A stretch of DNA of 23,317 bases from contig JBHLMP010000054.1 in the NCBI GenBank assembly GCA_048938025.1, positions 1 to 23,317 on the forward strand, read 5' to 3'. Positions 1-23,317 of the stretch are shown piece by piece (positions within the stretch are counted from its first letter, which is position 1; each line of letters begins with the position of its first letter). A program made the position numbers and the translations under genes. The stretch is from Promethearchaeota archaeon (GTDB lineage: Archaea; Asgardarchaeota; Lokiarchaeia; Sigyniarchaeales; SOKP01). The notes under the pieces are model-generated. The model saw nothing but the letters and a program-made list of their open reading frames with translations, did no database searches and was not told the DNA's origin.

Positions 1-1389
1 TACTCCATTAATAGAAGCTTTCATCCCACTTGTCCCACTTGCCTCTAAATATCTTCTAGGATTATTTAACCATAAATCGACTCCACTCACCAACAATTTT
101 GCTAATGAAATCTCATAATTTTCTAAAAATACGAGTCCTATATCGTATGAATTCCATAAATAATTACTATATTCATAAATCTTTCTTATATAAGATTTAG
201 ACTGTAAATCAGCAGGATGAGCTTTTCCTGCAAAAATTAATTGTGCTTTCTTCTTGATAATTTTAGCTAATCGTTCGAGATCAGTGAAAATCAAAAGAGG
301 TCGTTTATATTCAGCCATTCTCCTGCAAAATCCTATAGTTAATAAGTGCTTATCAAATAAAATCCATGAATGTGAATTTTCATATTTAATAAGACGATTT
401 TTTGCCTTATTATGCGCTCTCCACAACTCATAACTATCCAAATTTAAGGCTCTTTCAAAAAGATCTAAATTATGATGCCAGTCTCTTGTTAATTCCTCAT
501 TAAGAAAATCTCTCATATATGGAGATAACCAATATCCTACATGAACTCCATTCGTTATAGAATTAATTTTATAGTTCGGAAACATTTTAATTGAGACTTC
601 AGAATGTTTTTTTGAAACGGCATTAATATACCCACTTGCATTTAAAGCGAGAATTGTCATATTGAGTGCATTTTTTCCCCCAAAATCATGGATTTGATCT
701 GGTAGGCGATTTCGAAAGACATCATACACCAAATTGTAATTAAATTCCTCAAGTCCTGCCCTTACAGGAGTATGAGTTGTAAATACACAATGTTTTTTTA
801 CTTCCTCTAAATTTTTGTATTTTATTAAAAGTTCAAAGATTAAAAAAGCAGCATGTCCTTCATTAAGATGATAGGTTTTTATGTTATAATATCCAAGCTT
901 TTCTAACATTCTATACCCGCAAATACCAAGAATCATCTCTTGAGCTATTCTCTGAAATGGATTTGCATCATATAACATATGAGTTAATTTTCTTTGCCAC
1001 GGCTCATTTTCATCAAGATCAGTGTCTAATAAAATTATTGGTATTTTATGCCCATTTCTGCCTATAATTTCATATTTCCAAGCTTCAACTTTAATTGATT
1101 TATCTTGTAATTCAAGAACTACTTGTTGATCGATTTTTTCAAAATCAGCAAGAAAATCCCATTCCATTTCTTTTTCAATTTGTTCTCCATTTGGTCCAAT
1201 TTGTTGATAAAAATAACCTGCATCATATGTCAAAGTGACAGCGATCATTGGTAAACCCATATCAGCTGCAGATCGAAGCGTATCTCCCGCTAAAATTCCT
1301 AAACCTCCAGAATAAATAGGTAAGCTACTCTCTATAGCAATTTCCATAGAAAAATAAGCAATTTCTTGATTTTTTTCATCAGCACTAAT
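1..1389 (-). CDS. glgP: Alpha-glucan (glycogen) phosphorylase, short form, 3' end runs off the window
   Basis: Manual translation gives IAYFSMEIAIESSLPIYSGGLGILAGDTLRSAAD, YHLNEGHAAF, VFTTHTPV and the PLP-lysine motif EASGTSGMK near position 1-50. Start is uncertain: ATT at 1389 behind AGGTG (1404-1400), or an in-frame ATG at 1464. Confidence 0.95.
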   Translation of the reverse strand, partial: MSADEKNQEIAYFSMEIAIESSLPIYSGGLGILAGDTLRSAADMGLPMIAVTLTYDAGYFYQQIGPNGEQIEKEMEWDFLADFEKIDQQVVLELQDKSIKVEAWKYEIIGRNGHKIPIILLDTDLDENEPWQRKLTHMLYDANPFQRIAQEMILGICGYRMLEKLGYYNIKTYHLNEGHAAFLIFELLIKYKNLEEVKKHCVFTTHTPVRAGLEEFNYNLVYDVFRNRLPDQIHDFGGKNALNMTILALNASGYINAVSKKHSEVSIKMFPNYKINSITNGVHVGYWLSPYMRDFLNEELTRDWHHNLDLFERALNLDSYELWRAHNKAKNRLIKYENSHSWILFDKHLLTIGFCRRMAEYKRPLLIFTDLERLAKIIKKKAQLIFAGKAHPADLQSKSYIRKIYEYSNYLWNSYDIGLVFLENYEISLAKLLVSGVDLWLNNPRRYLEASGTSGMKASINGV

Positions 1390-13317: not shown

Positions 13318-13983
13318 TTATCCTGCAATTTGACCTAGTAATATAGATACAATAAGAGTCACGACGCCAGCGGTAACTAAGTGTATCGAATATCTCAATC
13401 GTCCTCCTCCTGAAATTGTTCCTAGAAAAACTCCTAGATATACTAGCAAGCCTATTAATATAAAATATGAAAACAAAAAATGTAAAAAGGTTAATGAACT
13501 ACCAAAGAAAAATGGAATTAAGGGAAGAGAAGATCCTAAAACAGGAGCACCGCCATCTACTAAAGAAGCAACAATTGTAGCAAAATTTTCTGCTTTTTCA
13601 AGTAAGGTTTTCTTCTTATTCTTTTTAACTTTTACATTATTCTCAGAATGCTCCATTATTTCCTCCGCTTCATCATCTTTCATTGCCATATTTTTTTTCA
13701 TATCCTGTACTTTTTTTTTGCGTTCAGCCTCTTCAGAAAGAAAAGCACCCCATAAACCACTTATACCAATAGCGAGAGCTGTGGCAAATCCAGTAACTAG
13801 TACATTACTAGGAACGAATACATCTGAACCTGAGAGATAAATTATAAATATACCACTTACAATGCCTGCACAAGTTAATGCTCCGTCAAAACAGTTGTTA
13901 AAAAATTTCCTGCGTGCAATTTCTCCCAAATCAGACATTTCAGAATACTTACGCCAATCTTTTAAGGTGGTTTTAAATCCCAT
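13318..13983 (-). CDS. VIT1/CCC1-family (TIGR00267-like) membrane protein, paralogue 2
   Basis: IARRKFFNNCFDGALT, GISGLWGAFLSEEAE, PLIPFFF, five predicted TMs. Confidence 0.8.
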   Translation of the reverse strand: MGFKTTLKDWRKYSEMSDLGEIARRKFFNNCFDGALTCAGIVSGIFIIYLSGSDVFVPSNVLVTGFATALAIGISGLWGAFLSEEAERKKKVQDMKKNMAMKDDEAEEIMEHSENNVKVKKNKKKTLLEKAENFATIVASLVDGGAPVLGSSLPLIPFFFGSSLTFLHFLFSYFILIGLLVYLGVFLGTISGGGRLRYSIHLVTAGVVTLIVSILLGQIAG

Positions 13984-14100
13984 ATAATTAAATCTTCTCT
14001 TTTTATATTTAATATCTTAATCTCTAAAAATTTGGAGATAATTAAAATCTAAACTATTCATTAATTTAAAAGATTTTATATTTTTTTTATCTTAAATTAT

Positions 14101-14814
14101 CTAACCTAAAAAAATTATAACAACTATCATTGTTGCTATAAAGGCAAATAACATCTGCAGAATATTTTTTATAATTGACTCATGTGATACTCTTCCTAAA
14201 AATATTCCTAATAACACAATACATGCGAATATAATCAGAAATGAGAGAATGAATGTAAAAAAACTTGAATTATTTACAAAGAAAAAAGGAATTAAAGGAA
14301 TCATTCCTCCTAAAAGTGGTGCAAAACCATTTACAAATGCAACAAATTTTCCTGCAAAATTTTCTGATTTTTCATAAAGAGTTTTCTTCTTCCGTTTATT
14401 TTCAGTATGATTTTCATTTATATTTAGTTTTACTATGCTTAACATCGCCTTTTTCAAATCCTCTTCTTGCTCTATTATATCAGGCTGATCTTCTTTAATT
14501 TCTTCTTCAATAATTCCCATTGCTTTATCCAAATCAGCATGTCTTTTTTTTAATTCAGCTTTCTCAGAAAGATAAGAACCAGATACTCCAGAAATAAACA
14601 TCGAGATGGAGGTACCTATACCTGGTAGTACAATATATACAGAGGGAATAGTCGGTTGATGAGGATTTTTAAGAACTACTACAAAAAAACCTAAGAGGAT
14701 CCCTAAAACTGTCAGCGCACCGTCATAAAAATTATTAACAAAATATCTACGCGCAATTACAATAAAGTTTGTTATTTTGTTATAAATCTTTATTCTATCT
14801 CTAATTTTAGACAG
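14101..14814 (-). CDS. VIT1/CCC1-family (TIGR00267-like) membrane protein, paralogue 1; extends 71 codons upstream of the ORF-track start
   Basis: The frame stays open upstream of ATG 14601 and encodes IARRYFVNNFYDGALTVLG, which aligns with paralogue 2. It is bounded by TAA at 14826-14824. Proposed start CTG 14814 (or ATA 14817). Confidence 0.8.
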   Translation of the reverse strand: MSKIRDRIKIYNKITNFIVIARRYFVNNFYDGALTVLGILLGFFVVVLKNPHQPTIPSVYIVLPGIGTSISMFISGVSGSYLSEKAELKKRHADLDKAMGIIEEEIKEDQPDIIEQEEDLKKAMLSIVKLNINENHTENKRKKKTLYEKSENFAGKFVAFVNGFAPLLGGMIPLIPFFFVNNSSFFTFILSFLIIFACIVLLGIFLGRVSHESIIKNILQMLFAFIATMIVVIIFLG

Positions 14815-14986
14815 TATTTTTTTTTAACCTTTTGCGAAAAAGTTATTCAAATGATATATAACCTTTATAATAAACATTATTATATTTTCTATATAAATTT
14901 GATATAAATAAGAAATAAAAACTTATTTTTTTTAATGTATCTTTTATATATTATATCTAAAACAATTTTGATGAGATATATACATT

Positions 14987-15625
14987 ATGAATAAGATTAA
15001 GGAAGAAATCATAACAAGACTTATTGAGCATTCAAGAATAATTTACACTGTTATTAGTGATATGGCAGTTTTTTTTAACACATGGACAGAAGGTTACGAG
15101 GCTAATAAAAAAACATTAGAAAAAAAGAAGAACAAAATGCAATTATCCGAAGAAGATGGAGATTCAATTAAAATACAATTAATCAAACAGTTTTCAGAGG
15201 CAGAAGCTCAAGGCGTTGGAGCTTATATGACTTTACTCTTAAGAATGGACAATGTTATTAACTATCCTCTTGAATTTGTCGATATGCTCCCTAAAATTAA
15301 ACTCGAAGAGAAATTTGATAAAGAAATTCAAAAACGCTATAAAAAATTGATAAATAAAATAATTGAAATGGTAGATATTCTAAAAACTATAATAAAAAAC
15401 CTAAGAGATAAGCCCGAAGCTGTATTTGATGATACTACTAAGATTCATGAAATGGAAAATGAAGTTGATACGATATATAGACAATTTTTGGAATACTTAT
15501 ACTCTAATGAGGATCTAAATATCAGAATTCTCCTTAGAATTCGCGATAGTATCGTTCTACTTGAACAACTCGCTGATAGAGTTCACGATATTGGAGATCA
15601 AATTAGAGTTTTATTGTATCAGTAA
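14987..15625 (+). CDS. DUF47 / PhoU-like phosphate transport regulator family protein (paralogue B)
   Basis: Repeated acidic ExxxD motifs: SEEDGD, EMENEVD, LEQLADRVHDIGD. 212 aa, helical. Confidence 0.85.
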   Translation: MNKIKEEIITRLIEHSRIIYTVISDMAVFFNTWTEGYEANKKTLEKKKNKMQLSEEDGDSIKIQLIKQFSEAEAQGVGAYMTLLLRMDNVINYPLEFVDMLPKIKLEEKFDKEIQKRYKKLINKIIEMVDILKTIIKNLRDKPEAVFDDTTKIHEMENEVDTIYRQFLEYLYSNEDLNIRILLRIRDSIVLLEQLADRVHDIGDQIRVLLYQ

Positions 15626-15738
15626 AACCTTCTATTTTATGTATAATTGTTAACATAAACTAAGATATAATCTATTCTATCGATGAAAATTCAGATCTTA
15701 AAAAAACAACGTAAGAATTTATTATAATTGATAGATGA

Positions 15739-17223
15739 TTAATAAATAGTCTCTCCAGTAATTTTATCTACTTTTAAATGTCTGAACCTTGCTTCAGTTT
15801 GATAAATTTCTTTAAGATTTAAGATTTTATTGTATACTTGCTCTGGAAACAAGTATTTTGCGAGAGGAATAATCATTTGTTTTGTTTCTATACAATTGAA
15901 TAATTTTAAGCTTTCAAAGGAATAGAATATCTCACTCACTAAATCATAATTAATGTCTCTTGAAAAGCTAAGAAATTCCAAATTTCTGTAAATTATAGAA
16001 ATAATTTTTTCTAATATATTATAATCTTTCAATTTATCAAGAGTATTTCTCATATAATTACAAAACAAAACATAATAAGTTGCTTCAGAAGATACAAAAC
16101 CGTCCCTATATTGTTTTATTCCTTCAGAAGTGATCCGTAAGTCAATCTCCTCGATAATTGCTTTTTTTTCATAATCTAAGGTTCTCATTCCCAAATAACT
16201 ATAAAGTTTCAATATTACAACTAATTGAGAAGTTTCTAGGTTTCTTAAATAGCTACTTTCGAAAAATTTTTGATCGCCTTTAATAAGAGTATTAATTTGT
16301 TCATCGGTTAGTCTTAATTTCATTAATTCAGTCGATTTTAAAAAATAATAGGTGCCATCAGTTGCTTCTAAAAGTGGTACTTCATATTCATCTATGGCTT
16401 CTTCATATAAATTCAATAAAAATTGAACTACTTTTTTTTTATTAATCTCAACCTTGAGTTGTTTAGCTAAATAAATTCCACAAAAGTAAATATCGGGATT
16501 TTTTAAAGTAATTAATGGAATATCTATTAACCATTCATCAATATTGTTTTTAAGATATTCTTTAATATGAGAAAAATCTAATTGTTTTTTTAGATGAAAA
16601 AAATCAATTATTCTATAAAATAAATATAAAAGTTGAAGTTTATCGCGAGGATCTTTTAAATCCTCAAGTCTTTCAATTTCTTTTTTATTTTTTAGAAATT
16701 TTTTAACAACATTTTCTTGAATTTGAATATATTTCCTTAAATTTCCTTCTTTTTCTATTTGGTTTTCAAATAAATTTTTAAGGTTTTTCAATTCTATTAT
16801 AAGTTCGATTGGTAACAACCCTTTTGATTTAAAGTTTACCATTAAGCTTGCAACATCCATATCGACAAAATAAAAAACAAAAATTTCCAAAAAAATTTCA
16901 TAGATTATTGGTGCAATTTTCTTCTCATAAATGTTTATTGGTGAATTTAAAAACTCTAAATCTTCCTTTCTTATTTCAAGAAAAGGATCTAAAAATCTGT
17001 TTTTGATTACTTCTTTTTGAAATCCTAATTCTTCTAATTGTTTTATTAAGAATAAGGTAATATCTTCAAGAATTTGAGTTAAAGCTAATTTTTCATTTTT
17101 TAATGGAATATTTTTAAAATTCTCATTGATTTTTTCTTGAAAATAATTATCTATATTATTGTAAAAAATGTCAATATTGTCAAAATATAAATCTAGAATA
17201 TTAAATATACCCTGCAGAATCAT
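15739..17223 (-). CDS. Hypothetical protein, possible C-terminal alpha/alpha-toroid (prenyltransferase-like) repeats
   Basis: 494-aa ORF with recurring aromatic helix starts (PDIYFCGI, DGTYYFL, EATYYVL, SEIFYSF). The fold call is weak. Confidence 0.6.
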   Translation of the reverse strand: MILQGIFNILDLYFDNIDIFYNNIDNYFQEKINENFKNIPLKNEKLALTQILEDITLFLIKQLEELGFQKEVIKNRFLDPFLEIRKEDLEFLNSPINIYEKKIAPIIYEIFLEIFVFYFVDMDVASLMVNFKSKGLLPIELIIELKNLKNLFENQIEKEGNLRKYIQIQENVVKKFLKNKKEIERLEDLKDPRDKLQLLYLFYRIIDFFHLKKQLDFSHIKEYLKNNIDEWLIDIPLITLKNPDIYFCGIYLAKQLKVEINKKKVVQFLLNLYEEAIDEYEVPLLEATDGTYYFLKSTELMKLRLTDEQINTLIKGDQKFFESSYLRNLETSQLVVILKLYSYLGMRTLDYEKKAIIEEIDLRITSEGIKQYRDGFVSSEATYYVLFCNYMRNTLDKLKDYNILEKIISIIYRNLEFLSFSRDINYDLVSEIFYSFESLKLFNCIETKQMIIPLAKYLFPEQVYNKILNLKEIYQTEARFRHLKVDKITGETIY

Positions 17224-17537
17224 TTTAGAAAAGAATTAAATCTAATACAAATTATTTTCTTTTTGCATAAAGAAAAGAATCATGAAATTAATATTTTTTT
17301 TATTTATTGTTTAGACTATACTAAATCATTACTATTAAAATCTAATAAATTGAATTCTCTGGAAAAATTTTATTCTTAATGAAAATGTTCAGAGAATAAT
17401 TAAAAGAATTGAAGTATATTGTAAAATTATTTACTTGATTACAAAATAAAAATAAAGCATTTTCGAAATATTTTTACGCTTAAATTTTTTTTATTATATT
17501 AATAAAATAAAAAAAATAACAGTCTAAGGTTATAAAA

Positions 17538-17897
17538 ATGAATGGTAAACAAAAATTTTATTTACTATTGGGGATATTCCAGATTTTACTAGTTGTAATC
17601 GTATTTTTTAGTATAGATGGGATTATTACATTTGCTGCTGCTCAAACACCTAGTGAATCATATAATTCTACTACTGCTGGAATGTTAGGAATAGCTGCTG
17701 CAATAGCAGTTGGTTTAGCTGTATTAGGAAGTGGTATGGCTATAAAGACAGTTGGTACTTCGGCAATAGCAGCGTTAACTGAGAGAGAAGAATTCTTTTT
17801 TAAAGCATTTTTAGTAGTTGCTTTGGGAGAAGCTTTAGCAATATATGGACTTATTATTGGAATACTATTATGGACTAAAATCCCTACGCCTCCTTAA
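17538..17897 (+). CDS. atpK: A/V-type ATPase proteolipid subunit c (K), single hairpin with N-terminal signal-like helix
   Basis: GIAAAIAVGLAVLGSG...FLVVALGEALAIYGLII with the conserved Glu. Confidence 0.95.
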   Translation: MNGKQKFYLLLGIFQILLVVIVFFSIDGIITFAAAQTPSESYNSTTAGMLGIAAAIAVGLAVLGSGMAIKTVGTSAIAALTEREEFFFKAFLVVALGEALAIYGLIIGILLWTKIPTPP

Positions 17898-17921
17898 AAC
17901 ATACTATAAAGCTGTAATTTT

Positions 17922-17926
17922 GGTGA
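17922..17926 (+). promoter_or_regulatory. Shine-Dalgarno motif GGTGA before the ACG start of subunit C
   Basis: GGTGA + 6 nt + ACG, the same geometry as the 3846 gene. Confidence 0.65.
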
Positions 17927-17932
17927 CCTTCA

Positions 17933-18985
17933 ACGAGTGTTCCAGTTCCCTCTTATGTCTATACTTTTATTAAAATAGGGTTTTTAAAACAATTAATAAT
18001 AGATGAAAAGACATTAGAAAAATTAAAAGACTTTAAAGAAATAGAAGAATTTATAGGATTTATTGAGCCTTTTTATCCTGATTTAAAAATTAATGAATAT
18101 TCTATCGAAGAAATTGAGAAAGCCTTATATCATATTTTTTTTAAGTTGATTGGAAAAATAATATCCTTTTCACCGTTTAACATGAGGCGTTTTTTAAAAG
18201 ACTATTTACTTAAATATGAAATAATAAATATCAAACAAATTATTCTAGGTTTAATAATAGGAATGAGTAATGAAGAAAAATCAAAAAATGTTAATTTTTT
18301 AATCGAAGAATATTTAGAAAATACTGATTTTATAAAAAAACTAATTGAACTTTCATCTTTAGACGAAGTTCAATTATATATGAAACCAACACAGTATAAT
18401 AAAGCAATTAGAGAAGGTATTCTTTATTTTAAGAATAATAATGAAATTTTTATACTCGAGGCGTTTTTAGATCAATTATACTATATAACTTTGCTGCAAA
18501 GAGAAAAGACCTATAATAAAAAAGAAAAATATATGATCTCTTTATTTAATTCTTTCATTACAGAAATTTATAATATAAATTTAATTTATCGTGGCTTAAT
18601 AAATAAGATAGATAAGAATTTATTATCTCAATTCATAGTAAATAATTATTTATTTTTAGATGAAAAAAAAATTGAGATTTTTTTGCATCAAGAGAATTTA
18701 AACGATTTTTTTTTAAAACTTGATGATCTCTTCGGAAAAATTATCGAATTAAGATATGATATTAATCTTTCAGAGATCGAACATCCAATATGGGAACTTG
18801 AGAGATTATACAAAAATTATTACTTTAAGAAATTTAAAATTGAAATTGATGATATTGATTATTTAACAATTTACAGAATTTTAGAATTGATTATAAAGAA
18901 AGAAAAAGAAATCAAATTAGAAATAATACCAAATGTAGTTAGAATAATAAATAAAAAATTTAAATCATTAAAATTGGAATTTTAA
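17933..18985 (+). CDS. atpC: A/V-type ATPase subunit C (d/AC39 family), 350 aa, probable ACG start
   Basis: Frame open from TGA 17924-17926 to 18985. N-terminal SYVYTFIKIGFLKQLII and DYLLKYEIINIKQII, LEAFLDQLYY, EIYNINLIYRG resemble subunit C. Operon context supports the call. Confidence 0.85.
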   Translation, partial: TSVPVPSYVYTFIKIGFLKQLIIDEKTLEKLKDFKEIEEFIGFIEPFYPDLKINEYSIEEIEKALYHIFFKLIGKIISFSPFNMRRFLKDYLLKYEIINIKQIILGLIIGMSNEEKSKNVNFLIEEYLENTDFIKKLIELSSLDEVQLYMKPTQYNKAIREGILYFKNNNEIFILEAFLDQLYYITLLQREKTYNKKEKYMISLFNSFITEIYNINLIYRGLINKIDKNLLSQFIVNNYLFLDEKKIEIFLHQENLNDFFLKLDDLFGKIIELRYDINLSEIEHPIWELERLYKNYYFKKFKIEIDDIDYLTIYRILELIIKKEKEIKLEIIPNVVRIINKKFKSLKLEF

Positions 18986-19020
18986 TCACCATATTATAAA
19001 AAAATATTAATTTTAGCGTT

Positions 19021-19332
19021 ATGGAACTCTTCAAATGGTTAAAAGAAATAGAACAAGTCTATCAAGAATTAATTGAAAATGCGAAAAAGGAAAGCTTAGT
19101 TCAAATTCAATTATTAGAAGAACAACAAAAAAAGGACCTAGAAATACTTCTAAAAGAAAAAAAGGGGTTTGTTAATTCAACTTTAACTGATCTTTCAAAT
19201 GAAGTCAAAAACTATCTTGATAATTTAAAAATAAAAAATAGTGAAATAATCAAAAAAATTGAACTTAATTATAAAAAAAATAAGGATAAATTAATTCAAT
19301 CAATAAAAGAAAAATTAGGATATGATTTTTAA
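19021..19332 (+). CDS. Probable A/V-ATPase peripheral stalk subunit G/H
   Basis: 103-aa charged coiled coil (LKEIEQ---ELIENAKKE) within the ATPase operon. Confidence 0.7.
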   Translation: MELFKWLKEIEQVYQELIENAKKESLVQIQLLEEQQKKDLEILLKEKKGFVNSTLTDLSNEVKNYLDNLKIKNSEIIKKIELNYKKNKDKLIQSIKEKLGYDF

Positions 19333-19652
19333 TGCCTAATCAGAAAGTACATGTACTAGGACATGATGAAATTGTTTCAATGTTAGGTTTATTAGGGATA
19401 GAAGGAACAGTTATTAAAGAGAATGATGACTTTTTGAAAGAATTCAATAATTTAGTAAATGATCCCCTAATTTTCATGATAATTATTTCATTAGATTTAT
19501 CAGATAACATTCTTGATTTCTTAATTGATTTTAAAATAAATAGAAGAAAACCATTTATAATGTATATACCTAATATTTTTAATTTAGATAGTGGTTCTGC
19601 AAATCTTTTTTTAACAAGAGTTTACGAATCCATAAATAAAATAATAAGTTAA
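19332..19652 (+). CDS. atpF: A/V-type ATPase subunit F
   Basis: KVHVLGHDEIVSMLGLLGIEG ... MIIIS ... PFIMYIP, 106 aa. Confidence 0.9.
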   Translation: MPNQKVHVLGHDEIVSMLGLLGIEGTVIKENDDFLKEFNNLVNDPLIFMIIISLDLSDNILDFLIDFKINRRKPFIMYIPNIFNLDSGSANLFLTRVYESINKIIS

Positions 19653-19666
19653 GTGAGGCGATATAT

Positions 19667-20392
19667 ATCTCAGAGGAAGAAAATTTAAAGAAATCTGTTG
19701 GTAACTTAGGATTATATTTAATAAGTAAAGCTTTACAAGAAAGTAAAGAAATACACAGACAACTACTATTTCAGAAAACTGAAATTAGAAAGAAATATGA
19801 TGAGAGAACATATAAAGAAACCTTAAAAGTTAAAAACAGTTTTATTGAAAACTATAATCAATTCTTAAATAATAATTTAACAACAACACTAATAAAATCA
19901 AAAGAAAAACTTCTCAATTTAAAGAATCAATTTAAAGAGGATTTAAAAAACTCTCTTAATGATTTAATTAAAAGAAAAATTAGTGAAAATTATCCAAATT
20001 ATATAGATTTTTTATTAGATCTTATTAAAAAACATAGTAATAATATAGATAATCAAGGAGAGATTACCTTTATTTTTAATTCAAGAGATTATAGTTATTT
20101 TATTAAAAATTTTAATCAAATTCAAAGAATATTCAAAAATTCAGTGATTATTCAACAATACATTGATGAATTTCTGGGTGGATTTAAAGTGTCATTTTCT
20201 CAATCAATTATTTCTTATGATTATACATTTGATACTCTAATTAATAAAAATTATATGCAGATTGAATTAGAATTTTCCAATACAATTTCTGATACTACTT
20301 ATAAGAAATTAAATATTGAAGTAGAAGAATTCTTCAATAAAAAAAAAAAAGATATAGAAGGATTTTTAAAGGAATATGATCAAATCAAATAA
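19667..20392 (+). CDS. atpE: A/V-type ATPase subunit E, about 241 aa, probable ATC start
   Basis: Frame open from TAA 19637-19639 to 20392. N-terminal coiled coil, then FIFNSRD and LGGFKV...YDYTFDTL typical of subunit E. The first canonical start (GTG 20144) would delete two thirds of the protein. Confidence 0.85.
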   Translation: MSEEENLKKSVGNLGLYLISKALQESKEIHRQLLFQKTEIRKKYDERTYKETLKVKNSFIENYNQFLNNNLTTTLIKSKEKLLNLKNQFKEDLKNSLNDLIKRKISENYPNYIDFLLDLIKKHSNNIDNQGEITFIFNSRDYSYFIKNFNQIQRIFKNSVIIQQYIDEFLGGFKVSFSQSIISYDYTFDTLINKNYMQIELEFSNTISDTTYKKLNIEVEEFFNKKKKDIEGFLKEYDQIK

Positions 20393-22211
20393 AGATAAAA
20401 ATTTTGGGTATACATCTGGTATCAATGGTTCCTTAATTGAAATAAAGGGATTGGAGCATAATATTCGACTTCATGATTTGATTAAAGTTTCCAAGCATAA
20501 TATATTAGGAGAAGTTATTCAAATATATTCGGATAAGGTAATAGCTCAGTGCTTTGAAAATACTAGCGACATGAGATTAGGTGAAGAAGTAATTGATCTG
20601 AAAGAACCTTTATCTATGGAATTGGCACCGGGCTTATTATCAAGTATTTTTGATGGAATTCAAAGACCATTAGAAAAATTTTTTACACAATTTACAGTTA
20701 CTGGTTTTTTGGAGAGAGGAGCAACCTTACCACCCTTATCAAGGACTAAAAAATGGCATTTTGTCCCACTGAAGAAGGTAAATGATGAGATCATTAATGG
20801 TGAAGTAATTGGAATGGTACAAGAAACACCTTCAATAACTCATTATATTTTATCACATCCAGAAGAATCTGGAATTTTAAGTTTTATTGCTGAAGAAGGA
20901 GATTATACAATAATTAGTGAGATATATAGATTAAAAAAAGGTTTACAAGAAAAAACTTTTAATATGATACAAAGGTGGCCTGTAACACAAAATAGACCTT
21001 TTCTTAAAAAAATAAGTCCAACTGAACCATTAATTACAGGAATTCGCGTAATTGATTTACTATTTCCTGTAGCAAAAGGAGGTACTGTTGCAGTTCCAGG
21101 AGGATTTGGTACTGGTAAAACTGTTATTCAGCAATCATTAGCTAAATGGTGTAATGCTGATGTGATAATTTTTGTTGGATGTGGAGAAAGAGGAAACGAA
21201 ATTGCTGATAGTTTAAGGGAATTTTCCAAAATCATTGATCCTAAAAGTGGTCGTCCATTATTAGAGCGAGTAGTAGTATTTGCAAATACTTCAAATATGC
21301 CTGTATCTGCTCGTGAAGCTAGTATTTTTTCGGGAATAACGATTGGAGAATATTATAGAGATATGGGATATGATGTTGCACTTATGGCAGATAGTACTTC
21401 AAGATGGGCGGAATCTTTAAGAGAAATTTCTGGTTTATTAGAAGAAATGCCTGCTGAAGAAGGGTATCCTGCTTATTTACCTTCAAAACTTTCAAGTTTT
21501 TATGAAAGAGCAGGTGTTATTACCACTATAGGAAATAATAGTTCAAAAGAAGTTAAGACGGGGTCTCTAACGATTATCGGTTCTGTGTCCCCCCCATCTG
21601 GAGATTTTAGTGAACCAGTAACTGCAACTACTAAACGCTTTGTACAGGCATTTTGGGCATTAGATGCTAGATTAGCATATGCTAAACATTATCCTGCATT
21701 AAATTGGCTTGATTCATATTCTAATTACCCTGAATATATTTCTGAATGGTGGAATAAAAGAGATATTAAATGGTTTGAGTTAGATCTCGATTGGCTTAAT
21801 TGTCGAAATCAAGTTAATGAAATTTTATCAATAGAAAATAATCTAAAAAATATAACGCAATTAATAGGAGAAGAGAATTTACCTGAAGACCAACAGCTAA
21901 TTCTTTTTATCTCAAAATTAATTAAAGAAGCGTTTTTGATTCAAAACGCATTTGATAAAATTGATAGTTATATATCAACCACTAAACTATTAGGACAAAT
22001 AAAAATTATCCTCTTACTATATAAAGAAGCAAAAGAACTTATGGATAAGGGGATTATTATTGAAGAAATTAAAGATCTTAAAATTATTAATGACATTTTA
22101 AGAATTAGTAATTCTATACCAAATGATGATTTCATAAAAATAGAAGAAATAAAGAAGAGATTACTTGAAGAAATTAATTCGTTAAAAACAACCTTTCATA
22201 GTTTGAGGTAA
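20376..22211 (+). CDS. atpA: A/V-type ATPase catalytic subunit A
   Basis: [18 protein letters not shown], Walker [46 protein letters not shown]. No intein. Confidence 0.98.
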
Positions 22212-22213
22212 AA

Positions 22214-23317
22214 ATGAGTATAATTTATAAAAATATAAAACAAATTATTGGTCCATTAATTTTTTTAGAAAATAACCATAATGTACATTATGGAGAAATA
22301 GTTGAAATTCATACAGTTGAGCAAGAAAATCGAATTGGTCAAGTTGTAAAAATTGATGAAGACTTAATTGTTATTGAAATTTTTGAAGATACAAAAGGAT
22401 TGTCCTCAGAAAATTCAACTATTTTTTTTACTGGAGATTCTTTTAAATTGAAAATTTCAAATGATATGTTTGGAGGTATTTTTAACTCTTTAGGGAAACA
22501 AATTGATATTTATACGAAAAAAGTTTTACAATCTGATATCTTAACTGATGTTGAACGAGATGTTAATGGTGTACCAATAAATCCATTTGCTAGACAATAT
22601 CCTTCAGAGGTAATACAGACTGGTATTTCTACCATTGATGGCTTATTTACACTAATTAGAGGTCAAAAACTTCCAATATTTAGTGGACAAGGCCTCTCAC
22701 ATAATAAAATGGCAGCCCAAATTGTAACTCAAGCAAAAGTTCTAACGGAAGAACCTTTTTTAATAATTTTTTGTGGAATAGGAATAACTCAAGATGACGC
22801 AATTTTTTTCACAGATCGCTTTCAAAAAAGCGGAAATATCCAAAATATAATCTCATTTATTAATTTTGCCGACGATCCTGTAATGGAAAGATTACTTATT
22901 CCAAGAATTGCCTTAACAACAGCAGAATATTTTGCTTTTGAAAAAGATATGCACGTTCTTGTTATATTAATTGACATGACCAACTATGCTGAGGCTTTAA
23001 GAGAATTAAGTTCTGCTAAAGAAGAAATTCCTAGCAGAAAAGGATATCCTGGATACTTATATTCGGATTTTGCTTCCATCTATGAAAGAACGGGTATTAT
23101 TAAGGGTAAAAAAGGATCCATTACTCAAATACCAATATTAACTATGCCAAATGATGATATTTCTCATCCAATTCCAGACACATCAGCATATATTACTGAA
23201 GGACAATTGGTACTCAATCGAAATTTAGAAAAAAAAGGGATTTATCCTCCTATTGAAGTTTTAGCTTCTATATCACGACTTATGAAAGATGCAATTGGTG
23301 AAAGAACTACCAGAGAG
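22214..23317 (+). CDS. atpB: A/V-type ATPase subunit B, 3' end runs off the window
   Basis: Manual translation from ATG 22214: [68 protein letters not shown]. Confidence 0.97.

Follow-up and report, generated by a model that had tools for sequence, protein, structure and literature searches.

Gene content of the locus

The window, the whole 23,317-nucleotide stretch of DNA analyzed here, carries an A/V-type ATP synthase operon in which the K, C, F and A genes are recognized by family models (PF00137, PF01992, PF01990 and PF00006), as well as minus-strand genes of the VIT1 and glgP families. Its features are as follows.

1..1389, minus strand: glgP-type alpha-glucan phosphorylase, running off the contig; start probably ATT 1387-1389
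13318..13983, minus strand: second VIT1 paralogue, ordinary ATG start
14101..14823, minus strand: VIT1-family paralogue without a canonical start (Pfam VIT1)
17538..17897, plus strand: atpK, proteolipid c subunit, ATG start (Pfam ATP-synt_C, PF00137)
17922..17926, plus strand: Shine-Dalgarno (SD) core GGTGA of atpC, its TGA in frame with atpC
17933..18985, plus strand: atpC, A/V-type ATPase subunit C of the AC39 family, ACG start at 17933-17935
19021..19332, plus strand: 103-aa coiled-coil protein, ATG start; H/G-like stalk subunit by position only
19332..19652, plus strand: atpF, ATG start (Pfam ATP-synt_F, PF01990)
19655..19661, plus strand: SD-like GAGGCGA of the subunit E gene
19667..20392, plus strand: subunit E (peripheral stalk) gene, ATC start at 19667-19669
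20376..22211, plus strand: atpA, ATG start (Pfam ATP-synt_ab, PF00006, and associated domains)
22214..23317, plus strand: putative atpB by operon position, the open frame after atpA; ATG start, frame cut by the contig end

The 103-aa coiled-coil protein is matched by F0F1 subunit B models only below threshold. The gene between atpF and atpA has no match by sequence in Pfam, NCBIfam or the PDB sequences. Its AlphaFold model (pLDDT 73.5) is matched by Foldseek to V-ATPase subunit E chains such as 4efa_E and 2dm9_A, with E down to 7e-5 and TMq up to 0.65; judged by this modeled fold only, the gene encodes subunit E. The atpK stop codon lies 36 nt before the start of atpC, and the atpF stop codon 15 nt before that of the subunit E gene.

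Start codons of the ATP synthase genes

The original prediction proposed that atpC, the subunit E gene (there called atpE) and the first VIT1 paralogue have no canonical start codon between an in-frame stop and the conserved N-terminus of the protein. This is true of all three, and the motifs quoted for these genes and for glgP are all present in the sequence. In atpC, GGTGA (17922-17926) is followed by a 6-nt spacer, ACG and AGT, and the TGA within the motif (17924-17926) is an in-frame stop. The first canonical codon, TTG 18146, lies 71 codons past the ACG, while the AC39 domain (Pfam PF01992, 2.9e-23) matches from residue 20 of the stop-to-stop frame; the protein is also matched by TIGR02923 AhaC of NCBIfam. 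Both this match and the Pfam VIT1 match in the VIT1 paralogue begin far upstream of the first canonical codon. An alternative genetic code does not supply a start for atpC, as reading through the TGA leads to a TAA three codons further up with no start codon on the way. A non-standard code is also disfavored by the long open reading frames obtained with table 11.

The atpC start codon is ACG in 20 of 23 loci of the genus, TTG in two and ATG in one; among the named MAG loci, five of seven have ACG. The same position holds ATG in six and ATT in one of seven loci of other genera. The GGTGA motif upstream of the ACG is conserved in the genus, and L001, L009, L010, L021, L094, L095 and L096 have an in-frame stop 0-2 codons ahead of the start. 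As to a possible base error at the ACG, the covering contig X3 carries six differences, four of which were inspected; the recurrence of ACG across the genus and the named MAG loci speaks against an error.

In the subunit E gene, GAGGCGA (19655-19661) precedes ATC (19667-19669) by a 5-nt spacer, the next codon is TCA, and the first canonical codon is GTG 20144. Start codons at 21 loci of the genus are ATT (16), ATA (4) and ATC (1) and never ATG, while all three loci of other genera start at ATG; TTT occupies the position in one relative, L094. GAGTTGA- or GAGGTGA-like motifs stand 6 nt before the ATT of orthologues, and most of the 21 loci have an in-frame TGA two codons upstream of the start. 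An ATG-AGT-TGA mini-frame in front of the gene was considered as a read-through start and rejected, its ATG being AAG, AAT, GGG or GTA in six of the 21 loci. A base error at the start of this gene is unlikely, since contigs from three other studies (X2, X3 and X6) cover the ATC and agree there, with every difference accounted for elsewhere.

VIT1 paralogue and glgP

The VIT1 paralogue on the minus strand was predicted to start at CTG (14812-14814), preceded by AAGGT and 12 nt and followed by TCT. The Pfam VIT1 match begins at residue 28 of the stop-to-stop frame, and a canonical codon first appears with ATG 14601, so that the missing canonical start is borne out. The choice of CTG is uncertain, because the ATG present in all 18 other orthologues of the genus aligns with ATT 14803-14805 and no SD was found in register at any of the candidate starts (ATA 14815-14817, CTG 14812-14814 and ATT 14803-14805). 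Only G000 and G012, which are two species, lack this ATG. Between them the first 74 codons, which precede the first canonical codon, have a dN/dS of 0.10; the paralogue is under purifying selection even though the ATG has been lost in two species.

The glgP gene had been put forward as a possible fourth case. Its ATT (1387-1389 on the minus strand, followed by AGT) is probably the start, judging from alignment of six close orthologues, in which the position is ATT in G000, G014, G005 and G017 and ATG in G015 and G008. In G014 a TAA lies two codons upstream of the ATT, and an upstream ATG at 1464 is not conserved among orthologues. AGGTG lies 10 nt upstream of the ATT, outside the optimal register. 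An optimally placed SD is lacking in both VIT1 and glgP, so that not every case can be put down to SD direction.

Near-cognate start codons across the genome

The SD consensus of the genome is GGTGA/GGTGAT, ending about 5-6 nt before starts. A position weight matrix was first built from 759 unambiguous ATG starts, taking the 18 nt in front of each. It failed to tell starts from background, since an SD is missing from most genes, and in-register SD matching was used instead. Near-cognate codons were counted as ATT, ATA, ATC, CTG and ACG and canonical ones as ATG, TTG and GTG. An in-register SD of at least 5 nt precedes 197 canonical starts (ATG 140, TTG 44, GTG 13) and 82 near-cognate codons (ATT 38, ATA 25, ATC 12, CTG 4, ACG 3).

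A stricter set of leaders was restricted to those with no canonical codon within the next 10 codons. Near-cognate codons make up 15% of this pool (1342/8754), yet 56 of them have an in-register SD of at least 5 nt, compared to 52 for all other codon types combined. The excess over the rate for other codons is about 47-55, and about nine of the 56 candidates are expected by chance. SD matches of at least 6 nt precede 25 of the 56 near-cognate starts and 40 of 140 ATG starts, and the perfect 7/7 AGGTGAT precedes eight near-cognate and seven canonical starts. In a comparison between families in which the control genomes were 400-kb samples only, this genus had 66 near-cognate vs 213 canonical starts and two genomes of another family had 5 vs 50 (Fisher p = 0.018). 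The predicted rule that such codons are followed by serine did not hold up as a specific feature: serine at codon 2 is found in 11 of the 56 near-cognate starts and in 141 of 752 (19%) unambiguous ATG starts, and is a general property of starts in this genome.

Protein domains and orthologues support individual candidates. Of 33 candidates tested, 13 have a Pfam match that opens at profile position 1-2, starts no more than ~20 residues into the protein and precedes the first canonical codon; the other 20 were uninformative. Supported starts include those of MCM (ACG), TFB (ATT), L21e (ATC) and GatB (CTG). At 23 readable MCM loci of the genus, one position is held by ATG (16), ACG (5), GTG (1) or ATA (1). 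L21e starts at ATA (10), ATC (6), ATT (4), TTG (2) or CTG (1) at 23 loci of the genus and never at ATG, whereas seven loci of other genera have ATG (4) or TTG (3). A near-cognate codon thus takes the position of an orthologous ATG in atpC, the subunit E gene, MCM, glgP and L21e; that ATG or other near-cognate codons might hold the same position in relatives is what the original prediction had asked of such alignments. An SD at working distance accompanies the near-cognate start in atpC, the subunit E gene, L21e, MCM and the 56 genome-wide candidates, and in many loci in-frame stops lie 0-2 codons upstream of it.

The start codon of aIF1

The gene of initiation factor aIF1, identified by its SUI1 fold (Pfam PF01253), itself starts at ATT in all 22 readable genomes of the genus (21/21 loci and G087) and at all five loci of two sister genera (g14 3/3, g12 2/2). 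Stops directly precede the ATT, and the frame contains canonical codons at just two places, codons 40 and 86. Its SD, GTGAT, ends 8 nt before the ATT vs the usual distance of about 5-6 nt. Other Asgard families, too, have aIF1 genes with weak or near-cognate starts. The cultured strains of Promethearchaeota probably fall outside this genus, in genera whose aIF1 begins with TTG, GTG or ATA and in which the number of affected genes is smaller.

Gene models differ in length. Those of JGI, ENA and Logan and this genome's own are 70-90 aa long vs 105-113 aa for NCBI, which already calls the ATT; this genome's own model is the 70-aa form from a GTG. The prediction that standard gene callers would truncate such proteins is thus seen in this gene.

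We also looked for changes that could relax fidelity in the factor itself, as had been proposed. Residues R31, Y32 and K34 are described for Pa-aIF1 (PMC6237735). The loop 1 motif RKWG(R/K) is identical in this genus and in Asgard families with ATG-started aIF1, so that this partial comparison shows no fidelity-relaxing change in loop 1; what the inspection did bring out is the ATT start of the gene. Sulfolobus aIF1 is described as discriminating against AUU (PMC4705826). If this finding from another organism is applied here, the aIF1 gene starts with the very codon its product rejects, which suggests a feedback that would hold start-codon stringency at a level where near-cognate codons work.

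Interpretation and alternative explanations

Taken on the comparative sequence evidence, intact genes are probably translated from near-cognate codons throughout this lineage, and this would not be a peculiarity of the ATPase operon. The relaxed, SD-directed start selection put forward in the original prediction is supported by the orthologue alignments, by the genome-wide excess of SD-led near-cognate codons over chance, by the Pfam N-termini and by a rate above that in two genomes of another family. Near-cognate starts thus appear to be a habit of this genus and family of Promethearchaeota (Lokiarchaeia), with roughly 50 or more genes of the genome predicted to be affected, essential ones included. 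In the simplest mechanism, a GGTGA-type SD ~6 nt upstream would position the 30S subunit on the near-cognate codon, and the ordinary initiator Met-tRNA would most likely read ACG, ATT/ATC/ATA and CTG, probably as weaker starts than ATG.

Several other explanations could produce the same codons. Base or assembly errors, pseudogenes, or truncated proteins made from downstream canonical codons might be suspected in a MAG with an estimated contamination of 5% whose own aIF1 model is the short GTG form. However, up to 23 species genomes, each assembled independently, show the same codons, and contigs from other studies match at the start of atpE. The frames are intact, and dN/dS is low in the VIT1 leader. 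Starting downstream would moreover remove the conserved N-terminal parts of domains, among them MCM_N, the zinc ribbon of TFB and, in aIF1, both the zinc knuckle and the first SUI1 strand. Artefact or decay is already largely refuted and we give it virtually no weight. In plant organelles, ACG start codons are edited to AUG, and C-to-U editing of RNA could likewise turn ACG into AUG and CUG into UUG here. The atpC ACG, kept by 20 of the 23 genus genomes, resembles edited plant starts in that the genome conserves ACG at a site that is ATG in homologues. Editing is nonetheless extremely unlikely, given that 75 of the 82 SD-registered near-cognate codons are ATT, ATA or ATC, a majority that C-to-U changes would not make canonical, and that the MCM position alternates among ACG, ATG, GTG and ATA within the genus, as in drift among usable codons; to our knowledge, C-to-U editing of mRNA is not known in archaea. 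Ribosomes leaving an upstream cistron might also reinitiate at near-cognate codons, which would be an effect of operon coupling and not of relaxed selection. The spacing of atpC and the subunit E gene (36 and 15 nt past the preceding stops) would suit this, but a same-strand open reading frame ends between -60 and +25 nt of only 13 of the 56 SD-led near-cognate starts, compared to 86 of 197 canonical SD-led starts and 664 of 2971 starts overall, and AT-rich intergenic DNA precedes aIF1, MCM and VIT1. Translational coupling is not supported as the cause, and we consider reinitiation very unlikely.

A further alternative is dedicated decoding, in which a second initiator-like tRNA or a modified anticodon would read AUH, perhaps also ACG, at full strength. 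In 21 of the 23 genus genomes L21e begins with ATH or CTG, and in none with ATG; the subunit E gene has ATH at all 21 loci, and near-cognate starts equal canonical ones at perfect SDs (8 vs 7). A third position that varies freely between A, C and T but never holds G would be odd for a codon that is merely tolerated, although G-poor third positions are expected at the genomic GC content of 29%. Mismatches at the third (ATH), second (ACG) and first (CTG) codon position together are, on the other hand, the classic near-cognate set of a single CAU anticodon, and no such tRNA was seen among 25 Rfam hits in an assembly where tRNA detection is poor. An initiator tRNA was likewise not found in this assembly by Aragorn with and without introns, by Rfam RF00005, none of whose 25 hits was recognized as an initiator on reading, or by anticodon-arm patterns. 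We regard dedicated decoding as very unlikely. The case of L21e, which is presumably highly expressed and has no ATG in the genus, fits a weak start poorly, and ATH may be read efficiently in this organism by some other means.

Returning to initiation at near-cognate codons by the ordinary machinery, aIF1, the factor that rejects non-AUG codons, could autoregulate through its own ATT. It is possible, and we propose it tentatively, that aIF1 with its ATT and invariant leader forms a self-feedback that sets the output of ~50 or more near-cognate genes, a start-codon-stringency regulon that would be an SD-based forerunner of eIF1/eIF5 control. Its proposed members include stalk and rotor subunits of the V/A-ATPase, L21e, MCM, TFB, GatB and enzymes of the ubiquitin system.

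Comparison with known systems

The usual view is that archaeal initiation is confined to AUG, GUG and UUG. Supplements aside, we found no published account of near-cognate starts throughout an archaeal lineage or of an archaeal aIF1 gene with a non-AUG start.

The closest bacterial parallel is infC of Escherichia coli, which encodes IF3, has an AUU start and represses its own translation (Butler et al. 1987, cited in PMC4705826). In both cases the gene of a factor that rejects non-canonical starts sits behind such a codon, here the ATT of aIF1. The aIF1 fold is, however, unrelated to IF3, and feedback is a prediction in the case of aIF1. In this lineage the codon class also extends to dozens of further genes, compared to very few in E. 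coli. In eukaryotes, eIF1 autoregulates via an AUG in poor context, and the levels of eIF1 and eIF5 govern initiation at ACG and CUG (Ivanov et al. 2010, cited in PMC4705826 and PMC6237735). The likeness extends to a homologous SUI1-fold factor with a weak start of its own and to the codons, as ACG, CUG and AUU/AUC/AUA are the eukaryotic set. In the archaeon, by contrast, positioning would be by SD and not by scanning and Kozak context, with no eIF5 and no uORF logic.

For Asgard archaea, a “rare ATT start codon” has been proposed for the AtubA tubulin gene in a Kariarchaeaceae (Heimdall-group) MAG (PMC13394414). There too an N-terminally short deposited model was mended by an ATT at a plausible distance from the ribosome binding site, but this is a single gene noted in passing, with no genome-wide or comparative claim and no mention of ACG or aIF1. 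Ribosome profiling of Haloferax volcanii found ~30% of putative alternative initiation sites to be near-cognate (PMC7261190), which gives an experimental hint of such initiation by archaeal ribosomes. Those sites are alternative or extra ones, possibly false positives according to the authors, and not the sole starts of conserved genes.

Implications

Proteins that start at near-cognate codons are truncated or missed by Prodigal-type gene callers. Table 11 does not allow ACG as a start, so that no standard pipeline can arrive at the right models for atpC and MCM. Truncated models distort the Asgard protein sets used in structural and evolutionary work.

In the closest relatives of eukaryotes, the eukaryotic near-cognate set would account for roughly one SD-led start in five, as counted from the genome sequence. 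With the gene of the fidelity factor also placed behind a weak codon, Asgard cultures or in vitro systems offer a way to test how eIF1-type stringency control arose. If the proposed regulon is true, the archaea most closely related to eukaryotes would hold a prokaryotic, SD-based forerunner of the non-AUG initiation that eIF1 and eIF5 control in eukaryotes.

Gene content of the window and the predicted starts

The window is the entire contig C74 of assembly G000, which comprises 3.52 Mb in 88 contigs (29% GC, completeness 96.7%, contamination 5.1%). An A/V-type ATPase operon lies on its plus strand from 17538.

Genes of the window considered here
Operon gene 1, plus strand: subunit K (PF00137)
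Operon gene 2, plus strand: subunit C, atpC (PF01992; TIGR02923)
Operon gene 3, plus strand: 103-aa coiled-coil protein
Operon gene 4, plus strand: subunit F (PF01990)
Operon gene 5, plus strand: 241-aa protein (subunit E gene)
Operon gene 6, plus strand: subunit A
Operon gene 7, plus strand: ATG-started open frame ending at the contig edge, read as B from position only
13318-14823, minus strand: two VIT1 paralogues
Running past the contig start: glgP-type phosphorylase
15739-17223, minus strand: 494-aa ORF between a PhoU-like gene and the operon, no Pfam family at E up to 5

The 241-aa protein had no match to any sequence family searched. An AlphaFold model based on 18 orthologues (mean pLDDT 73.5) resembles chains of V-ATPase subunit E, among them 4efa_E and the P. 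horikoshii E fragment 2dm9_A, at TMq values of at most 0.65.

The original prediction was that atpC, the subunit E gene and one VIT1 paralogue start at ACG, ATC and CTG, and that glgP may start at ATT; all the motifs it quoted are present where it had placed them. In atpC, GGTGA (17922-17926) is followed after 6 bases by ACG AGT from 17933; the TGA of the Shine-Dalgarno (SD) motif is in frame, and the earliest canonical codon (ATG, GTG or TTG) lies 71 codons downstream. In the subunit E gene, GAGGCGA and 5 bases precede ATC TCA from 19667, with the earliest canonical codon 159 codons downstream, while the VIT1 paralogue continues for 74 codons past a stop without a canonical codon. Pfam alignments start well within the leaders of these genes.

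Start codons in relatives

Alignment of orthologues bore out near-cognate codons (ACG, ATT, ATC, ATA or CTG) at the same position in relatives for atpC, the subunit E gene and glgP. The start-aligned codon of atpC is ACG in 20 of 23 genomes of the genus (G000 included), ATG in one and TTG in two; seven loci from the order's other genera have ATG (6) or ATT (1), and ACG recurs in 5/7 further loci of named MAGs. A GGTGA/GGTGAT motif is conserved 6-8 nt upstream, and an upstream start is impossible in seven loci (L001, L009, L010, L021, L094, L095 and L096), since an in-frame stop lies 0-2 codons ahead of ACG. The subunit E gene never starts at ATG in 21 genus loci (ATT 16, ATA 4, ATC 1), and in most of them TGA precedes the start by two codons; ATG is found at three loci from other genera. 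Six close orthologues of glgP have ATT (4) or ATG (2) at the start position, one ATT orthologue has TAA two codons upstream, and the upstream ATG of the window is not conserved among them.

In the VIT1 paralogue, the predicted absence of a canonical start holds for G000 and its nearest relative G012 only, since all 18 other genus orthologues have ATG. The proposed CTG is uncertain, as this ATG aligns with ATT at 14803-14805; no SD was found in register, so the start may be ATA, CTG or ATT. The gene is not decaying, with dN/dS between G000 and G012 at 0.21 overall and 0.10 in the 74-codon stretch ahead of the first canonical codon.

No RNA run was found to cover the stretch, and DNA contigs from four runs were compared with the window. 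Around the subunit E start, the contigs of X2, X3 and X6, three other studies, differ from it at 5, 8 and 4 sites, all at other positions, and thus read ATC as well. The X3 contig covering atpC has 6 differences, with positions known for 4/6; sequencing error at this start is implausible because ACG recurs in assemblies of other species.

The subunit E start of L094, a named Promethearchaeota MAG, reads AGGAGGTGA-ATAAAT-TTT TCA, with TTT precisely in SD register. TTT (and GTT) also at times head ORFs in exact SD register in G000 (C11, C68, C71 and C56), and may be errors, chance or two-mismatch starts.

Genome-wide association with Shine-Dalgarno motifs

Across 759 unambiguous ATG starts of G000, the SD consensus is GGTGAT ending at -6, i.e. 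GGTGA with a 6-nt spacer. Non-shadow ORFs of 100 codons or more (2972 in all) were then scanned, and every codon from the upstream stop to the first canonical codon was scored for an in-register (+/-1) run of 5 or more bases of GGAGGTGATC. SD-registered codons included ATG (140), TTG (44) and GTG (13), and among near-cognates ATT (38), ATA (25), ATC (12), CTG (4) and ACG (3). In a stricter set, with no canonical codon among the next 10, the whole genome proved biased as the window is: 56 SD-led near-cognates vs 52 for all other codon types combined, while near-cognates make up 1342 of the 8754 codons in the pool. This amounts to an excess of about 47 near-cognates, rising to about 54 when 4 nt suffice. 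Many of the "other" matches are internal Gly-Asp codons in truly coding leaders. The count is a lower bound because GGTGT-type SDs also precede ATT/ATA in other long-leader ORFs, e.g. those for an XPD-like helicase and a roadblock protein; of the 102 ORFs whose leaders reach 30 codons or more, 28 hold an SD and near-cognate candidate.

Perfect AGGTGAT precedes 8 near-cognate vs 7 canonical codons, and SDs of at least 6 nt are commoner before near-cognates (25/56) than before ATG (40/140), which fits a strong SD compensating for a weak codon. Ser at codon 2, originally taken as a special mark, is a general preference seen at 19% of ATG starts. Coupling to upstream cistrons was not supported as the driver, with a same-strand ORF ending nearby (-60 to +25 nt) at 13/56 near-cognate vs 86/197 canonical SD-led starts.

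Applied to 400-kb samples, the same statistic gave 10 near-cognate and 16 canonical SD-led starts in G023 of the same genus, and 2 and 28 in G032 and 3 and 22 in G038 of another family. The pooled comparison (G000 and G023, 66 vs 213; other family, 5 vs 50; Fisher p = 0.018) is only indicative, given small samples and related genomes. The near-cognate habit is stronger in the genus and also present outside it.

Some frames that open after a stop are probably selenocysteine (TGA) sites rather than missing starts. In G000, G(V/I)NI(G/A) directly follows a stop codon in four HdrA-like frames, as NCKLNAKKLD does in a SelD-like one.

HdrA-like and SelD-like frames in G000
C85:4969-5517, minus strand
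C87:40201-40749, plus strand
C15:33114-33662, minus strand
C26:4658-5209, plus strand
C35:31672-32643, plus strand

A small Rab/Arf-like GTPase of G000 (C12:21621-22118, minus strand) has an apparent frameshift just ahead of the P-loop, where MRNNEDKKGFVFKITDLLKKFSRVDLL in one frame resumes as IGDGAVGKTS in the next.

Near-cognate starts in other genes

Outside the window, 34 SD-led near-cognate candidates precede the next canonical codon by at least 20 codons. Pfam was searched with 33 of them, leaving out a second candidate within the same ORF. In 13/33, the first ~20 residues contain the start of a domain, matched from profile position 1-2: L21e (ATC), AFOR (ATA), FolE2 (ATT), ferredoxin (ATT), TFB zinc ribbon (ATT), CbiM (ATT), ubiquitin-conjugating E2 (ATC), GatB/E (CTG), ThiF (ATT), MCM (ACG), a response regulator (ATA), a hydrogenase small-subunit-like protein (CTG) and ETF-alpha with an N-terminal ferredoxin (CTG). 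Eight of the other 20 have no family and 12 gave uninformative or weak matches.

In 23 genus genomes L21e starts at ATA (10), ATC (6), ATT (4), CTG (1) or TTG (2), and AAGGTG(T) precedes the start in every case; in other genera, seven loci start at ATG (4) or TTG (3). Weak starts might tune ATPase stoichiometry, as originally suggested for subunit levels. Since L21e never uses ATG in the genus, ATH (ATA, ATC or ATT) may not be very weak there. The MCM start, at a single position after GTGAT, is ATG (16), ACG (5), GTG (1) or ATA (1) in 23 readable genus genomes. The variation in both genes indicates that start codons turn over among usable forms. The MCM of G000 is uninterrupted; among relatives (L240-L242, L246, L247, L249 and L250), several matches are split (residues 1-432 and 429-708) within a single open frame of 1128-1774 aa, suggesting at least one intein near residue 430.

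The initiation factor aIF1

The original prediction pointed to aIF1, which polices start-codon fidelity, and a SUI1 family search in relatives revealed that its gene itself starts at ATT in 21/21 readable genus loci. With minor variants, all read AGG TTG TGA TAA GAG AGT ATT AAA GAC GAC GAC ATT TGT, so that 2-3 in-frame stops lie immediately ahead of (AGT) ATT. Read from ATT, the protein has 110 aa and includes the zinc knuckle described for archaeal aIF1 in passages of PMC6237735. The frame holds just two canonical codons, GTG (codon 40, within the SUI1 domain) and ATG (codon 86). The ~90 nt upstream of the gene, which include a TATA-like TTTTTATAAG, are almost invariant. ATT is also found in G087 and in two sister genera (3/3 and 2/2 loci).

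aIF1 start codons by family, in the wider order and phylum
f2: TTG, GTG or ATA
f6: CTG
f9: GTG or CTG
f11 and f17: ATA
f4, f5, f8, f10, f13-f16, f18, f20-f22: ATG

NCBI models begin MKDDDICPIC, so PGAP already calls this ATT; models from JGI, ENA, Logan and G000 itself are truncated to 70-90 aa. Two genus genomes, G087 (C32 and C2) and G007 (C60 and C18), have a second, diverged aIF1/SUI1 copy; the G087 copy, with GTG or ATA as its possible start, is preceded by GGAGGTGA, and that of G007 has an internal TAA.

Another initiation factor gene of G000, aIF2-gamma (C39, ~14885-14915, outside the window), is interrupted precisely within the P-loop, GHVDHG | KTTLV (loci L295, L296 and L297). The insert is 29 nt and shifts the frame in G000; in G003 and G001 it is 30 nt long and contains both a GAAGG/CCTTC hairpin and in-frame stops. 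The gene is uninterrupted in five other same-genus genomes read (G006, G008, G011, G012 and G013) and, as match coordinates imply, in about eight more. The insert is a candidate mRNA mini-intron, possibly of the bulge-helix-bulge type; MFE folds gave no clean bulge-helix-bulge.

Possible explanations

Near-cognate starts are known as single cases, such as infC and pcnB. The literature searched gave no account of archaea using near-cognate starts across a lineage, starting genes at ACG, or having an aIF1 gene with a non-AUG start. A "rare ATT" start in an Asgard tubulin gene is mentioned in a passage of PMC13394414.

The near-cognate-started genes described here have no canonical start, show conservation and constraint, and bear near-cognates at the orthologous start position; most have an SD in register, and the genome is biased alike. 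Artefact or decay is contradicted by the recurrence of the same codons across species and by the dN/dS evidence. C-to-U editing, restoring canonical starts, cannot account for the ATH majority. A dedicated AUH-reading initiator is a less likely alternative; a search of the G000 assembly found no initiator tRNA.

In the most likely reading, relaxed SD-directed initiation, the SD would position the 30S subunit, Met-tRNAi would pair with two of the three codon bases, and aIF1-dependent proofreading would be lenient enough for such complexes to go on. According to a review (PMC4705826), Sulfolobus aIF1 causes rejection of AUU by the 30S complex, and infC (AUU) and eIF1 (poor context) are autoregulated via their own weak starts. 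A paper on P. abyssi aIF1 (PMC6237735) also draws the eIF1 parallel, and its available passages are silent on any aIF1 gene with a non-AUG start. By analogy, aIF1 feedback may operate in the genus, and the ATT start of aIF1 would itself stabilise this permissiveness.
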